Positions 58,201-64,000 of a stretch of 64,000 bases of DNA are shown piece after piece. Position 1 is the first letter of the stretch; every line of letters begins with the position of its first letter. Position numbers: made by a program. The stretch is from an uncultured Gemmatimonadales bacterium. GTDB taxonomy: Bacteria > Gemmatimonadota > Gemmatimonadetes > Gemmatimonadales > GWC2-71-9. The DNA is taken from contig CAWJIM010000021.1 in assembly GCA_963842945.1 (NCBI GenBank), positions 308,853-372,852 of the forward strand, written 5' to 3'.

Positions 58201-61200
58201 GGCAAAGGTGCGATAGACGGCACTCGCCGAGTCGAGGGCCAGACTCCGCCGAAAGGCCTACTGCCGCGCGTGAGCGCGGGGAGTCCACCCCGAGCTGCGC
58301 TCCGAAATGGAAGATACTCGTCACCCAGCTCATGCCACATCTTCCGGGCTGTCGGGGGCCGCCGCCACCCCCCGCTGCGCGGGCCGCAAGAAACTCGGCG
58401 TCCGGCGTACGGAGCGGGGTAGCGGGGACCGACCCGCGCCAGGAGCAAGGCAGCGGTCGCGCGGGCTTAGCCGAGTCGCGATTTGCCCACGCGAGCGCTG
58501 CCCCGCGGCCCGGGGTCGGTGCCCGGCGGCCAGAGGCCGCCCGCAAGCCACTGGGAGGCGGAGAAGAGGCTCATCGCCGCAAGTGCAAACGTCGAGTCTG
58601 TCTGGATTGCTCTTGAGAACTCCCGCAACGCGGCCGCTCCAGCGACCGAGGCGATAGGCCCTCTGACCGTCGAAGTAGGCACGGAGCGCCGGAAGCGAGG
58701 TGAGTGACGCCAACTCGGTCCGGCCGCCCTCGCCGGCAAGCAACTCCGCTGTCAGGCGGTCGACCAGCACGGGCACGCTATCCGGCGGCCCTTCCACACT
58801 GACGGGGGACGAGTGCTTGCCCACTCGGGATCTGGAGCACGGAGGCCGTGAGCGTAACATGCTCCGGAGTTCCCACGACTCCGCCATCGATCAGCCGGCC
58901 GGCCCCAAGGCGTCGAGCAATACCGACCGCGGCCTCCGGTGTCGGCCTCGTGAGCTGGCCGAGCCGCCGGCGCGGCGCCAGGCGCTGAGCACCGCGCGCG
59001 GATCCGCCGCACGGGGTCCGCCTTCACCCGTGAGCTTGATCGCGAGGAGATCGACCATCCCTTCCCGCAGGTATTGCAGCGCCGGATCCGCCCCGGCGAC
59101 CCGGAAGGGGAGGACGGCGACGACCCGGGCGTCCGCTGGTCCGCCGGACAGCCCATGACGACGCCGGAGCGGTAAACGCACTACCGCCGCACCGATCGCC
59201 GCGACAACCGCCGCCGGCAGCGACAAGGCCCCGTGCGTGACCGGCGTCTCCGCTGAGGCTCGATCGACCGTCTGGCCGTCCAGCGAGGCGCCTGGCTGAA
59301 CTCCGTGGCCGTGGCAAACCGATCGGCAGGCACTTTGGCCAGCACCCGGGTGACGGTCCGCTCGAGGGACTCCGGCACGGTCGGCCGCACGCTTCGGAGG
59401 GACGGGACCGGGTCGAGCGCGTGGCGAGCCATGAACGCCCGAGCGGTCACCCCGGTAAACGGGGGCTGTCCGGCGAGCATCTCGTAGAGGACGCACCCGA
59501 GCGCATAGAGATCGCTTCGCTGATCCAGGTGCGTGCTCCCCGCTGGCTTGTTCGGGGCTCATGTAGGCCGGGGTCCCTAGCGCGAGCCCGGTCTCCGTGA
59601 GCCGCTCCGCACCGGCAGCGTCGACCGCCTTCGCGATGCCGAAGTCGGCCAGGAAGACGCGCCAGCCGGCTGACGTCCCCCGATGCGGAGGGTAGCCTGA
59701 CAAGCAGAATGTTCTCGGGCTTGATGTCACGATGGATGACACCCTGCTCGTGGGCGTAGGCGAGGGCGGCCGCCACTTCGCCCGCGATCCGGAGCGCATC
59801 CTCCACGGGCAGCTGATGCTCCCGCGTCAGCCGGCTCCGCAGCGACTCCCCCTCGACGAACGGCATGGCGTAGTAGAGACCCGGCGCGCCATCGGCCAAC
59901 GCGAAAGTACCGGAGTCGTACAGCGGCAGGATGTTCGGGTGACTCAGGCCGGCGGCGAATCTGATCTCCCGCAGGAATCGATCTGGTCCCAGCGCGTTGG
60001 CGAGCTCCGGGTGCAGCACCTTGAGCGCGACTGGGCGGTCATGCTTGAGGTCGTGGGCAAGATAGACCGTGGCCATACCGCCACGCCCGAGCTCGCGCTC
60101 GAGCACATAGCGGTCACGGAGGGCTTCAGCTAAGGCGGAGCCCGTCACGTCGGTCACGGTCGGGCCTTGGGAAGGGATGCCTTGAATGTGGCTTCGCGTA
60201 CGCTCGATCGCCAGCAACGGCACGGAACGGTGCTATGTAGGAGAGGCGGTAAGCCGAAATGGACCACTGACATTCTTTAAAGTTGTCTTCCTGGGCAGCG
60301 CTCACCTACCTCCTCTTGGTAGGCCTGCGGGGCCGCGACGGAATCCCGAAGTGCCTCGTAGACCAGACCACGCAAGCCTGCGTGCACGCGCCACCCGACC
60401 TTCACTGCGCGCCGAGGTCTAGATCGTCCTTCAGTATTCCCCGGCTTACTAGAGACCCGAGCCAGTTATCATCATGGCAATTGACCAAGACGATATGCTG
60501 TCGTTGCGTAAGGCCCGTGCTACCGGGGAGAATCAGGCCAATGGCGACTGACACGTTGACGCGCCTTGTAACCTGAGCACCACTGCGGTAACGGACACAT
60601 GGCCGCCGGTAACTGACGCAAGCCGGTACGTAAACGGGGGCGGTCAGGCTCGGCGCTCCCGTGTTTGAGGGAAGTTCGCCCTCACCGGGCGCAGGCGCTC
60701 GGTTTGACAGTCTTTATGCCAATCCCCGATCTGAAGACCTCACGGGAGCAGTGTAAGGCCAAAGTACCGAGGCTTCAGTCGCTCTCGTTCCACCAGTTCC
60801 CTGCGCCGTTGAAGACGGCCGGCAAGAACTTTTTCCACTACAACCGCGGCGAGCTCCCATGTATCGGGAAGGAGCCACGGGTACATGTGCCCGTACTCCG
60901 GACGCAGGCGTGCCTCCCGCCATCGAGATACCGACAATCCTTGGTGTTGACCAGGCACTGCGTTTGGAACCTCAACATCCCGGAACTCGAAATGCTTGTC
61001 CGAAAGCACCCGGGGCCGAAGCACCAGCTTGGTGGATCCGACAAGCTCGGGGTTCTTCTCGCTCACGGGACCCCTTCTGAGATAGACGATTACGGGGTAT
61101 TTCGCAGTGGGGTGCCGACCAGCGGCCCCCCGCAAATTTGCCGGCTAATACGCGACAGCATACCGGGAGAAATGGTCGATATCACCAATGACTTCGGACG

Positions 61201-64000
61201 AGTCCTTCGAGTCCACAGACGGAGGCAGCTCCAGAATCCGGAGTCCCCAGCCGATATAGGCCAGGCGCAGGTCGAGGTCGACCGGGACCACGCATTCTTT
61301 ATAGCTCAAAGTCAGCTTGGCTGACTTCGCGAACTGGAGTCCCTCGGGATAGAAGTCCACGTCCACCAGTGAGCTGGTGGGCGCCTCCGCAACGATCAGC
61401 TCCTCTCGAGTCAGCGCCCCTTCGGGATAGACCAACTGGTGCGCACCGATGTGCAGCGTACCTCCATCGGGACCAACGATGGCGGCCTCACCCTCGAATG
61501 GCCGGGGCTTGCAGCGCAGCAGGTCGACATCCAGGAGCGTGCTGGCCTGATCAGTCTTCGACTGTTTCAGCAGCTTCCGATACTCTTTCCAATCGTGTTT
61601 GAACTCCTTCCACTCATCCCGGGCAAGCTCGTACGCACCCTTGCGCAGGTCCTTCTCCTTCTTGATTCGCTCCTTCTGCAGGTTGAGGAGGAGCTTGAGC
61701 TGCTCATGGCGCTGCTCTCTCTCTTCCTTGGTTGCCTCCTGCTCGGCTGTGCTGAAGCTCGGCGACAGGTCCGACGGGTTCGTCGGTGCGCCGGCATCAG
61801 TGCAGGCAATGCTGACGCCGCCCACCAGCACCAGCATAGCCACCACGAGGTGCCGTACGTTGAGCATCTTCTCCTTTCCCCCCGGATCGATGGATCGACT
61901 TCAAGGCAACAAGAACGCGGTGCATCCAGGGCTCGAGCCGAGGACGCACCGCGCATGTCAGCGCGCTGTGACCACCTTCGGCACCGAGCTATCTCACGGC
62001 CCTCGTGAGACCCCTTGGTTTTGCGGCCCCGGATCGCTCCGGGTGTGCTCTTATCGGGCAGTTCAGCATTGTGGACGACTGGTTCTGCGAAGGGTGTGTC
62101 TCTGCAAAGTGCAGGCCTCCAGGCACTTACGGAGGTTTGTTCTGGCTATGCAACCGGGTGCGGTGCGCGCTGGTCCCTATCGCGAACCGACATCAGTGGT
62201 GTCCTCGAATTAGCAATGTCAATAATCTTGACCTCGTAAGCCGATGCAGGTGCACAAAAGGGCATCTCAGACTTCCTGCATCTCGCGAGGATTCGGGTGA
62301 ACCTGCCTGAGCCGCAAAGGGGTGCCGCCAGGCCCTTAACCATCCGGGCCGCCGTACCGACTTGTTCAAATCCTGCTATTGATCTCGGTCGAAGTTCACT
62401 TTCTCCTCCCGTCGGCTTGGCGGATCTTCCACACGGACAGGGGAGCCACCACGGAACTCGAAATGCTCTGGTCGCAGCATCCGACTTGCCTGCCCGACGC
62501 CCGGATCCGATCTCCGCACTAGCCACACCATGAGCCGGTGTGCCATCGCACTAGCCGAATCCCAAACGCCGGGTTTAAGAGGAGGGTAGAGGTGAGCGAA
62601 TTCCGGCTTGAGCCGAGCTTCTCGTCTGCCGGGACGCGGACTCACGGAACTTGAACTCGTTGCGTGTCCCGATTTCCCATTGTGCTCAGGCTCCCGAGCG
62701 ACGATGCGGCTCCTTGCTGGTTTGCCCTGCCGTAACCCGCACGCGCCTCGGGGTCGGGCCCAGAGGTGGTCGACTTTTACTGTGGGAGAACACCATATCG
62801 GGGAGTTTTATGGTGTGATAGGCCCCAGTTGCGACAAAATAGGCCCCTTTTGCGACATGTTCAGGGCGGCCCGTGGGGCCGAGTGATGTCGAACACTTCC
62901 CACACGGCACTAATCAGGGATCTGGGCAGGTGCGCCAGCTCAGCGTCGAAGGCAAGCATCTGGGACCGATCCCCGAGGGACCAGAAGCATCTGGGGGTTT
63001 AAGGCGGCCAGCACCGTCTCGAGGCAGCTGAAACGCAGCCGGTCGAGTGCAGGGCAAGCGCCAGCAGATCCCCTGTTTCCTGGCGGACATTCTGGTCATC
63101 TCCGAGGGCACAGGGCGGCGGATCGGTGCGGTGACTCCGCTACCAGGACCTGCGACCATCGGATGGCCCACACGGGAAGATTGCTTGGCCAGCGGCCACC
63201 GACAAATCCGGCAAGAGTTGGCTCACGCCCATAACGCCCGAGGTGCGAGCCAGCTATCCAAGATTGACGTGATCGGCCAGGGCTCGGCCCAGCCCCCTGT
63301 TCCCTACCCCGCGTGACCTGAGCCAGCCGACCGGGCGCAGCAAGTCTACTGGTCGGCGATCGTTACCGGACTATTTGAAGGGTGTCTGCCCTCGTTCGGC
63401 CAAGGCCGGCGAAGCCAGAGGGGCCAAAACCCCGAGATTTTGACCCGAAACAATTAGGGTCCCAGTGACCACGGCGTTTCGCGAGATCACCTTCGTCTGC
63501 TCGTGAAACATGAATTGGTCGTTGGACCGGGAGCGGCTTACAGAGGACTCTCGGGGGCCTGTGCCAGTCCACACCAGGTCTACCCTGGCGGGTACCAGTG
63601 TACCGCTAGTCACGTCAGTCGCTATGATCGTCCCGTGTAAGGTCGCTCTGTCCAGATTGCCTCGTTCGTCGAAACTAAGTGCCTCGTCAACCGGAGCAGA
63701 AAAAGTAAAAGACGTTCCTGCCCCGCAGACATCTCCGGCCATTCCGTACAGAGAGTTGTTTGGTAGTTCTTTCGATGCCCGTAGCTGTCTGGGTTTGCTG
63801 ACTGGCTTCGTTGATGAAAATTCCAGTTTGAAGACAGGGCGGGTCTGCCTCCTCGCTGAAATTCGCGAAGGCGAATGTTCCGCGACCATGAGAATGGAAC
63901 TTGTCGCTCACCTTTGCACTAAGCGTTAGTGTTTCATTCGCTGCCGTCGGGACAGCATTGTCAGTGCAGGCAAGCTCGAGGCCAGCGAGCGCCGCCGCTG

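Follow-up and report, generated by a model that had tools for sequence, protein, structure and literature searches.

A riboswitch-led ZU5 lipoprotein gene in a Gemmatimonadales bacterium points to a candidate peptide signalling loop

The lipoprotein gene and its paralogues

The window analysed here, a stretch of 64,000 nucleotides from the genome of an uncultured Gemmatimonadales bacterium, carries on its minus strand (61145..61867) an open reading frame, P0001, for a lipoprotein of 240 amino acids that ends in DHFSRYAVAY directly before the stop codon. Its features, all on the same strand, begin with a signal peptide and lipobox (61802..61867). Cys22 of this lipobox is shared by at least 90% of 22 aligned rows, and a lipobox-like motif is present in 116 of the 120 homologues among the matches listed, the four lacking it being 5'-truncated. 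Two long helices (residues 47-102; 61562..61729), modelled by AF2 with a pLDDT of 85-98, are restricted to the window-type subfamily and are missing from the short forms. Residues 119-240 (61148..61513) make up a ZU5/GAIN-B-like beta-sandwich with an invariant Cys119 and Cys192. Within it lie H232-F233-S234 (61166..61174), a predicted autocleavage site marked by family conservation and structural register, and the C-terminal heptapeptide SRYAVAY (61148..61168), the predicted product, which contains the last strand of the AF2 model (236-239) and follows the family pattern S-x-Y-A-V-A-(W/Y/F). The protein ends exactly six residues past HFS in 118 of the 120 homologues among the matches listed. 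These observations, together with the AF2 and Foldseek results and the RF01051 score given below, bear out an earlier note on this DNA in its description of a lipoprotein with lipobox, ZU5 fold, terminal HFS plus six residues and a GEMM-I aptamer in the leader.

No family was matched at cut-off when the window protein was searched against Pfam and NCBIfam; a paralogue on contig C19 matches ZU5 (PF00791) at E 0.0016, below the cut-off. A 2.4-kb segment (60652..62994) that includes promoter, riboswitch and gene is duplicated on contig C18 (138671-141001) with 82% identity, and the lipoprotein gene of that copy contains two frameshifts. The C19 locus consists of paralogues in tandem, both lacking the long helices: an intact gene (224 aa) followed by one with a single frameshift. 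The split C19 copy of the earlier note is thus a pair of genes. The window protein and the C19 pair share one and the same C-terminal heptapeptide. When longer homologues were sought, most of the proteins recovered had 230-300 aa; the one receiver-domain fusion looks like a run-together reading. The ESM Atlas gave unnamed clusters and one ZU5 cluster at 0.87, which serves as a lead only.

The leader

Upstream of the gene, again on the minus strand, lies a putative sigma-54 (-24/-12) promoter (62103..62118) of the form GG-N8-TTGC, which we take to be the sigma-54 consensus. Of 35 leaders having at least 120 nt upstream, 27 show the same box 58-70 nt ahead of the aptamer, and it occurs at 47 of 53 core TPR-HD-GYP loci as against 0.108 in shuffles, so that it is common to riboswitch loci and core loci. 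A sigma-70 and short-loop terminator scan of the relevant strand found neither, the terminator because its loop exceeds the limit of the scan. The box is followed by a GEMM-I aptamer (61971..62062 including P1) and by an expression platform (61908..61970), and the ATG is 110 nt downstream of the Rfam aptamer match. Both RF01051 matches (C21 370829-370911 in the numbering of the window's contig, 43.8 bits; C18 139957-140040, 47.1 bits) exceed the gathering score of 35, and the earlier concern over low aptamer scores is therefore limited to the variant models. An aptamer match at one other locus (L105) had an E of 0.076 and was taken as chance.

The expression platform contains an intrinsic terminator (61908-61954) whose loop is able to pair with the 3' strand of the aptamer as an antiterminator. 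Such complementarity is present in 31 of 32 leaders and is the architecture of an OFF switch; the Cd1 riboswitch, an OFF switch, has the same terminator/antiterminator arrangement, as far as the sections of the sources cited here describe it (PMC6140456, PMC9262584). Equilibrium folding favoured the terminator whether P1 was locked or not, and by itself is therefore no evidence of switching; for partial transcripts, pairing of the antiterminator was 0.47 or higher in 16 of 32 leaders. Judged by its sequence, the riboswitch resembles an OFF switch, which goes against the proposal that the lipoprotein is induced by c-di-GMP. Overlap with metatranscriptome contigs was confined to the flanks and 41 nt of the aptamer. 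Among loci of the lipoprotein family, the riboswitch stands before the gene at 33 of the 80 from metagenomes and at 9 from genomes; in several lineages the aptamer with its terminator and antiterminator sits between promoter and gene.

Ligand of the aptamer

At the position that governs selectivity (62049 in the window) the aptamer carries A. This position, which we take to be the equivalent of Vc2 G20, a numbering cross-checked against the Rfam UAU consensus, was found by alignment with G-bearing aptamers of the same genome, in which G-type and A-type aptamers coexist. All 42 linked aptamers carry A here and not the canonical G, as do 84 of 85 aptamer pattern matches. In the parts of the GEMM-Ib work drawn on, this A is described as necessary, not sufficient, for cGAMP preference (PMC6140456, PMC9262584). 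The A is thus a signature of cGAMP or dual specificity, and the ligand predicted from it is c-di-GMP, cGAMP or both; the plain c-di-GMP of the earlier note is too narrow.

The C19 contig also encodes (20172-21866) a Hypr-like GGDEF protein of the Fe-S type with Tyr304 as a non-Arg residue, Asn348 in place of Ser, and the GGDEF motif. A GGDEF protein with these features is found in this genome and in 55 of 62 genomes having the aptamer core, and all eight Ser-bearing genes that were fetched are orthologues of the C19 gene. Asn at the Hypr position is not discussed in PMC6456294. The idea that a Ser-type Hypr enzyme explains the A was rejected, as the Ser-type pattern and the A-type aptamer rarely co-occur (4 of the 62 genomes). 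The chance that the aptamer works in vivo as a normal c-di-GMP sensor, its A notwithstanding, like dual-specificity aptamers of this type, is only a little short of even. A-type aptamers bind c-di-GMP via a protonated A and Cbe 1-2 prefers c-di-GMP, according to the same sections (PMC6140456, PMC9262584); the scarcity of Ser-type Hypr genes is also in keeping with this, and the linked HD-GYP proteins have the canonical RxY(R/K) and not the cGAMP-type RxxQ/N. It sits less well with the near-invariant A in genomes that also hold G-type aptamers and with the distribution of the Tyr304/Asn348 GGDEF protein and its Ser-bearing orthologues.

Fold and predicted autocleavage

The AF2 model of the window protein has a pLDDT of 83 and places it in the ZU5/GAIN-B sandwich fold. 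Foldseek gave 12 matches at E<=1e-3 with ankyrin ZU5 at the top (4d8o, E 7.8e-6), VIA aligned 113 residues at Z 9.9 and rmsd 2.4, and GAIN domains were also matched (Z 7-8). A profile search of PDB sequences returned only E>0.5. In the structural alignments model residue 233 pairs with Nup98 863 (1ko6) and NLRP1 1212 (6x6c), both of them cleaved proteins, and the alignments end there; these are weak rows (Z 3.4 and 4.8), through which an H-x-(S/T) ahead of the last strand comes into register with the known cuts. Nup98 H862 and NLRP1 Ser-1213 stand at the cleavage site (PMC3210808). Among 150 family representatives 148 have HFS and one HFT, and one is truncated; the domain end is the exact protein end in 135.

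Because F233 aligns with the residue preceding the cut in Nup98 and NLRP1, the window lipoprotein likely cleaves itself at F233|S234 and loses its last seven residues, to judge from the model. The earlier claim of a self-cleaving HF|S ZU5 protein is thereby supported as to the fold, the register with known scissile bonds and a predicted C-terminal product of seven residues. HF|S autocleavage in the same fold superfamily has already been demonstrated in vitro and in vivo for the bacterial MAIN domains, in the text cited here (Brogan and Rudner, bioRxiv 10.64898/2026.05.12.724683). The tail pattern is a requirement of the fold for its last strand, and tail conservation is therefore no proof of a signal role.

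Linkage to TPR-HD-GYP genes

A gene for a TPR-HD-GYP protein (TPRs N-terminal, HD-GYP C-terminal) adjoins the ZU5 lipoprotein gene at 27 of 29 genome loci; in further regions it lies downstream in 58 of 80 and is absent from 20. Conversely, of 73 TPR-HD-GYP genes whose upstream DNA reached far enough, 72 have a ZU5 lipoprotein gene directly upstream. As the loci compared are relatives of one another and were taken in order of similarity, these counts are not independent. The family operon runs from the sigma-54 promoter through one or more ZU5 lipoprotein genes to the cytoplasmic TPR-HD-GYP protein, often with TPR-only proteins and an oligopeptide-binding protein (SBP_bac_5 near 31 of 80 receptor loci). 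The linked HD-GYP domains have intact HD, HHE, GYP and RxY(R/K) motifs and are predicted phosphodiesterases. For the TPR part (388 Foldseek matches at E<=1e-3) the matches listed include LGN/Pins, OGT and designed TPRs, and Rap, NprR, PlcR and AimR are not among them. This genome has only two TPR-HD-GYP genes, both behind the C19 lipoprotein pair; neither the window copy nor that on C18 lies beside a TPR gene, and the window copy is thus an orphan. At the 80 core TPR-HD-GYP loci no riboswitch was found within 3.5 kb. A TPR gene follows downstream at 9 of the 33 metagenome riboswitch loci and is missing from 14 of the 23 riboswitch loci where the downstream DNA was long enough. It is a minority of the ZU5 lipoprotein family that has the riboswitch.

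In the first set of peptide-receptor pairs a receptor Asp accompanied a basic residue at peptide position 2 in 71 of 71 cases and a non-basic one in 0 of 11; the rule was obeyed in 29 of 31 held-out pairs, and this column ranked top of 340. Arg is gained at another receptor column in 79% of 28 non-basic rows as against 0 of 83. In a quick tree the non-basic peptides fall into one clade of 28 and, apart from it, one exception that keeps Asp. The receptor Asp therefore appears to track the Arg of the peptide mostly through a single evolutionary event, and the idea that the covariation shows repeated co-evolution was rejected. A complex prediction for the TPR part and the last 30 residues of the cognate ZU5 protein scored 0.27 against a mark of 0.32, which speaks neither for nor against binding.

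A possible signalling loop and its alternatives

Taken together, the lipoprotein, the aptamer and the likely peptide sensor and degrader of cyclic dinucleotides that is encoded beside nearly all relatives of the lipoprotein point to a signalling loop, so far undescribed, among a group of soil bacteria; the literature searched contained no description of a ZU5 lipoprotein/TPR-HD-GYP/riboswitch unit. We give a probability of about 0.5 to the reading that the heptapeptide, once freed, acts as a signal to the phosphodiesterase in the cytoplasm, in an RRNPP-like manner and with riboswitch feedback. The lipoprotein would cleave its own F233|S234 bond by an N-O acyl shift, and the last strand, S-x-Y-A-V-A-(W/Y), would stay non-covalently held until released by force, envelope stress or turnover. 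The peptide would then be imported, bind the TPR groove and set phosphodiesterase activity. High levels of the cyclic dinucleotide, be it c-di-GMP, cGAMP or both, would stop transcription in the leader, so that the precursor would be made at low signal; if the peptide activates the enzyme, a self-reinforcing low-dinucleotide state may result. The chances are evenly balanced that the window gene represents a satellite of this Gemmatimonadota signalling unit, a copy of its precursor half placed under riboswitch control. The peptide of the window gene, the same as in the C19 pair, would act on the C19 receptors in trans.

The protein may instead cut itself and keep its strand, as a structural or adhesion lipoprotein of the surface or periplasm that is merely co-regulated with TPR-HD-GYP in a sigma-54 and cyclic-dinucleotide lifestyle regulon. 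Cleavage products of MAIN, GAIN and FIIND domains stay stably associated; those of MAIN and GAIN are bound so tightly that release took SDS or heat, in the portion of the preprint cited (bioRxiv 10.64898/2026.05.12.724683). Arrays in which as many as six paralogues stand in tandem hint at bulk material, and both the orphan copies and an A-variant aptamer that also governs other genes, mostly a STAS gene, agree with this reading. We consider it unlikely; it leaves unexplained the gene directly upstream of 72 of 73 receptors and the TPR charge changes that match peptide position 2.

It is quite improbable that the N-terminal part is the functional product, a strand-less lipid-anchored ZU5 that captures a matching strand, either the cargo N-terminus of large ZU5 lipoproteins or free peptide in a signal-damping sink, with the helical window type as dock or decoy. 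The phylum does have large lipoproteins in which ZU5 is followed by 263-913 residues of cargo, and the window type, with its extra helices, is often without a receptor neighbour. However, cargo forms depart from the minimal pattern in the strand that follows the site, a profile search of this genome found no cargo form, and the window tail is the same as in receptor-linked copies. The cargo-bearing forms and the tie to a TPR-HD-GYP gene also dispose of the earlier notion of a stand-alone module without cargo. Least probable of all is that HFS serves folding only and the intact domain binds a partner, as in the non-cleaving ZU5 domains of ankyrin, UNC5B and ZO-1. Ankyrin ZU5 domains, which are not known to cleave, are the best structural matches; against this, the nucleophile is Ser or Thr in 149 of 149 complete representatives and never Ala or Gly, UNC5B carries Leu where Phe stands here, and the register of the site agrees with Nup98 and NLRP1.

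A bolder form of the signalling reading, which we put forward tentatively and with the odds against it, makes the untethered GAIN/ZU5 'tethered agonist' strand a new bacterial peptide signal with protease-free maturation, release by force or stress, reading by a cytoplasmic TPR-HD-GYP enzyme that thereby sets cyclic-dinucleotide levels, charge-matched dialects and a cGAMP-sensing OFF riboswitch fed by the Fe-S-type GGDEF protein with Asn at the Hypr position. If true, a diderm soil phylum would possess a peptide language that is like RRNPP signalling but made of other parts, peptide sensing would be coupled directly to cyclic-dinucleotide turnover with RNA feedback, and cGAMP signalling would extend to Gemmatimonadota. 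The strand after the GAIN/ZU5 cut would also gain a bacterial signalling job, a point left open by the MAIN preprint in the text cited (bioRxiv 10.64898/2026.05.12.724683). A domain of 130 residues, the heptapeptide in synthetic form, a single soluble enzyme and a leader of 200 nt would bring every step within reach of testing, and the Arg/Asp pair offers a direct probe of specificity.

Comparison with known systems

In adhesion GPCRs the strand after the GAIN cut is a hydrophobic signal of seven residues. The GAIN domain shares the fold superfamily with the ZU5 lipoprotein; the latter differs in having no fused membrane receptor, and its strand would travel to a separate cytoplasmic protein. 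The ZU5 superfamily autopeptidases (PIDD, NLRP1/CARD8 FIIND and Nup98) share fold, site register and H-F-S motif. Known bacterial ZU5 members lie within large toxin or surface proteins, none being described as a minimal precursor of a seven-residue product in the sections cited (Zhang et al., PMC3482391). The MAIN domains, as portrayed in the text cited, are alike in their bacterial GAIN-like sandwich, HF|S site, export and products predicted to stay associated, and their proteins average 158 kDa with N-terminal cargo, a C-terminal wall anchor and no known signalling output. ZU5, lipoprotein, riboswitch and Gemmatimonad are terms that do not occur in that text, supplementary tables aside (bioRxiv 10.64898/2026.05.12.724683). 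In contrast to the MAIN layout, the window family has an N-terminal lipid as anchor, a last strand that ends the protein and a linked gene for a cytoplasmic receptor.

The aptamer resembles GEMM-I and GEMM-Ib (Gs1761, Cbe 1-2) in passing the family cut, in its Cd1-like platform and in having A as in GEMM-Ib, and differs from the members treated in the sections cited in standing upstream of a candidate signal precursor and, at some loci, of its own phosphodiesterase (PMC6140456, PMC9262584). The RRNPPA systems (Rap-Phr, NprR, PlcR, AimR), as far as the portion cited covers them, share an exported precursor whose C-terminal mature peptide is freed by one N-terminal cut, an adjacent cytoplasmic TPR receptor, Opp-type import and multiple precursor genes with orphans (PMC9765709). 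Adjacency of precursor and receptor genes holds for the ZU5 family and not for the window copy. The differences are that the ZU5 family belongs to a diderm phylum and not to Firmicutes, that its precursor is a folded lipoprotein of 170-240 aa predicted to cut itself, and that RRNPPA receptors have an N-terminal HTH or three-helix bundle ahead of C-terminal TPRs, whereas the TPR-HD-GYP proteins have a C-terminal HD-GYP domain instead (PMC9765709, in the same portion).

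The ZU5 lipoprotein genes

The gene under study (61145-61867, minus strand) encodes a 240-aa lipoprotein with a lipobox cysteine (Cys22), two long helices and a C-terminal DHFSRYAVAY followed directly by the stop codon. It matched no Pfam or NCBIfam family at cut-off, and the earlier note's description of lipobox, terminal HFS and lack of a Pfam family was borne out. Four family genes were found in the genome: that of the window, a copy on contig C18 and two tandem short forms, without the long helices, on contig C19. The C18 copy, which sits within a 2.4-kb duplicated segment with 82% identity to the window, is indeed broken by frameshifts, two in number, and the C19 locus, previously read as one split gene, proved to be two genes of which the first is intact and the second carries one frameshift. 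Frameshifts are frequent throughout this assembly, several of them splitting a Ser/Thr kinase gene with a TPR-like tail (57122-60223, minus strand) that has dozens of paralogues. A 131-aa ORF without a Pfam match (60740-61135, minus strand) lies directly 3' of the ZU5 gene and recurs at the C18 copy within the duplicated segment. Genes at 51182-52852 (plus strand) are, judged by their motifs, those of an ArsR-like regulator, an arsenite methyltransferase-like and an acetyltransferase-like protein.

Family matches occur in 103 of 301 Gemmatimonadota genomes, and the family belongs to this phylum going by the named homologues and record titles. One ZU5/TPR-HD-GYP pair (L212), 66% identical to Gemmatimonadota proteins, lies on a 2-kb contig titled Omnitrophota, an assignment that may be a binning error.

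Association with TPR-HD-GYP genes

The family had been described as stand-alone, which is contradicted by the genes beside it. Of the best 29 genome loci, 27 (one from an unpublished genome) have a match to a profile of the TPR part that adjoins the ZU5 gene in the same orientation. Of 80 further regions picked from 150 listed family matches, 58 have such a match downstream, 20 have none and two were too short. In the reverse test, which took the best 80 of 594 loci for TPR-HD-GYP proteins (candidate cytoplasmic receptors and phosphodiesterases), a ZU5 gene lay upstream in 72 of the 73 loci with at least 340 nt of upstream sequence, within 300 nt in 69. As the loci are kin, these counts speak of conservation and not of independent events. 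Across this genome the TPR profile has two matches only, both directly behind the C19 ZU5 pair: a gene for a TPR-only protein of 354 aa and one for a TPR-HD-GYP protein of 537 aa. The window and C18 copies are orphans, with the same heptapeptide (SRYAVAY) as that pair. A family-5 solute-binding lipoprotein gene follows the two C19 TPR genes, and 31 of the 80 receptor loci likewise have one nearby.

Four loci (L133:4984-8897, L136, L137 and L141) carry as many as six divergent ZU5 lipoprotein genes in a row, which lie between a sigma-54 activator gene and genes for a 690-aa TPR protein and a TPR-HD-GYP protein and whose products differ in the residue at tail position 2.

The predicted cleavage site

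The AF2 model of the window protein (pLDDT 83) is matched best by ankyrin ZU5 domains (Foldseek E 7.8e-6; VIA Z 9.9, rmsd 2.4, 113 residues) and next by GAIN domains (VIA Z 7-8); by fold and site the protein belongs to the ZU5/GAIN superfamily. Alignments with the cleaved Nup98 and NLRP1 chains, although weak (Z 3.4 and 4.8), end at model residue 233, opposite residues 863 and 1212. Since PMC3210808 puts the histidine of the Nup98 HFS at H862 and names Ser-1213 as the nucleophile of NLRP1, F233/S234 is in register with the known cuts. Of the best 150 representatives (50% identity), 148 have the motif as HFS and one as HFT, the remaining one being truncated; 135 proteins end exactly six residues after it, the tail pattern being S-x-Y-A-V-A-(W/Y/F). 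Cys119 and Cys192, invariant across 29 diverse rows, probably form a disulfide. Autocleavage at F233/S234 is predicted with high confidence, and it is very improbable that the lipoprotein stays uncleaved.

Four long forms with cargo C-terminal to the site occurred among 20 fetched regions. In these lipoproteins (L128, L129, L130 and L131; 572-1067 aa) the ZU5 domain ends in HFS or SFS and Ig-like cargo follows. Their layout, which inverts that of the bacterial MAIN domains (see below), would let them shed the C-terminal cargo.

Leader RNAs and their ligand

The GEMM-I aptamers previously reported before the window and C18 genes both stand, scoring 43.8 bits (110 nt 5' of the window gene) and 47.1 bits against the RF01051 cut of 35. 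A search model based on 12 aptamers, with both types among them, placed a same-strand aptamer directly upstream in 33 of 80 metagenome loci, every one of the helical type (30 of the 62 loci with at least 300 nt upstream), and before nine genome loci, five of them short forms; none was found within 3.5 kb at any of the 80 core receptor loci, those with the best TPR-HD-GYP genes. A TPR gene also lies downstream in nine of the 33, and the loci L144 and L364, with aptamer plus TPR gene, fall in a separate receptor clade. A box resembling the sigma-54 consensus precedes the aptamer by 58-70 nt in 27 of 35 leaders, and 47 of 53 core genes have one upstream (0.108 in shuffles). This distribution suggests that the riboswitch was inserted more than once between promoter and gene.

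A terminator lies 3' of the aptamer, formed by a hairpin of 11-13 bp and a U-rich tail. The loop region contains, in 31 of 32 distinct leaders, a 5-mer complementary to the aptamer 3' strand. In computed folding, forced pairing of loop and aptamer eliminates the terminator while a locked P1 coexists with it. In partial transcripts antiterminator pairing had a probability of 0.97 in the window leader and 0.90 in that of C18, but reached at least 0.47 in only 16 of the 32 leaders. The same arrangement is described for the Cd1 OFF switch (PMC9262584). The ZU5 leader is likely to be an OFF switch too, which lends no support to the ligand-induced expression proposed earlier.

The selectivity position, which we map to Vc2 position 20, is A in all 42 ZU5-linked aptamers and G in seven other aptamers of this genome; the Rfam UAU consensus gives U, A and U at the three positions mapped by Vc2 numbering. 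An A at position 20 is a mark of cGAMP or dual-specificity aptamers (PMC6140456). The aptamer core is present in 62 of the 151 family genomes, and 84 of its 85 matches have A (these and the following genome tallies take in three unpublished genomes). This genome, which is 87% complete, yielded no Ser-type Hypr GGDEF, and the Ser-type pattern co-occurs with the aptamer core in only four of the 62. A gene at C19:20172-21866 (minus strand) encodes an Fe-S-like N-terminal region and a GGDEF domain with Tyr304, Asn348 and GGDEF, the signature residues (304, 348) being those of PMC6456294. Its sequence makes it a candidate cGAMP synthase; the Asn348-type pattern is present in 119 of 151 family genomes, and all eight fetched Ser-bearing GGDEF genes are its orthologues (51-57% identity).

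MASE1-GGDEF proteins with Ser348 and GGDEF were also seen (L232-L259), the Ser348 pattern occurring in 43 of the 151 genomes, four of these with the A-type core searched. The near-invariant A-type core (C19:150822-150914, minus strand, and L262-L290) precedes a STAS-like and then a receiver gene in most of the 30 loci read, with an expression platform unlike that of the ZU5 leaders. The seven G-type aptamers (C20:141036, C20:7070, C21:99827, C21:353634, C5:59079, C3:187304 and C5:174857) precede secreted or lipoprotein genes and alpha/beta-hydrolase-like genes.

A possible peptide signal

In a first set of 82 distinct adjacent peptide-receptor pairs, a TPR column close to where the repeats end, the top of 340 columns, has Asp in all 71 pairs with Arg or Lys at peptide position 2 and in none of the 11 others. 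Fixed beforehand as a prediction, this rule was true for 29 of 31 new TPR-HD-GYP pairs and was looser with TPR-only partners (12 of 17). At a second column Glu is lost, and 8 of the 13 rows with acidic peptides have Lys or Arg there; at a third Arg is gained in 79% of 28 non-basic rows versus 0 of 83 basic rows. The direction of these charge changes fits peptide contact. What counts against it is a quick tree, made with the tested columns left out, in which the non-basic peptides fall into a single clade apart from one outlier, where Asp is retained; the covariation amounts to about one evolutionary event.

Layout, linkage, motifs and leader structure were established by computation. The reading that we favour, to which as a whole we give a probability of about 0.5, is that the ZU5 lipoprotein would be exported and lipidated and then cleaved at F233/S234, its last strand being held and later freed conditionally; the heptapeptide would be imported, bind in the TPR groove and alter phosphodiesterase activity, and high cyclic dinucleotide would shut off transcription of the precursor. 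Its weakest steps are release of the strand, since such strands bind tightly, and passage into the cytoplasm. The full loop with cGAMP as its ligand is doubtful. The lipoprotein might instead be a structural protein that is merely co-regulated, which we consider unlikely, and that it serves as a dock or decoy seems less probable again.

Comparison with known systems

The ZU5 lipoprotein unit is real and is a novel combination of known kinds of parts; no description of the ZU5/TPR-HD-GYP unit was found in the literature searched, which lay outside subscription papers and the MAIN preprint tables. According to PMC3482391, bacterial ZU5 domains are known from toxins and large surface proteins. 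MAIN domains show bacterial HF/S cleavage with the products retained (bioRxiv 10.64898/2026.05.12.724683), but their layout is opposite to that of the ZU5 lipoprotein, which falls outside them on this count. The proposed unit would work much as the RRNPPA systems do (PMC9765709), although by architecture its receptor is not one of them.
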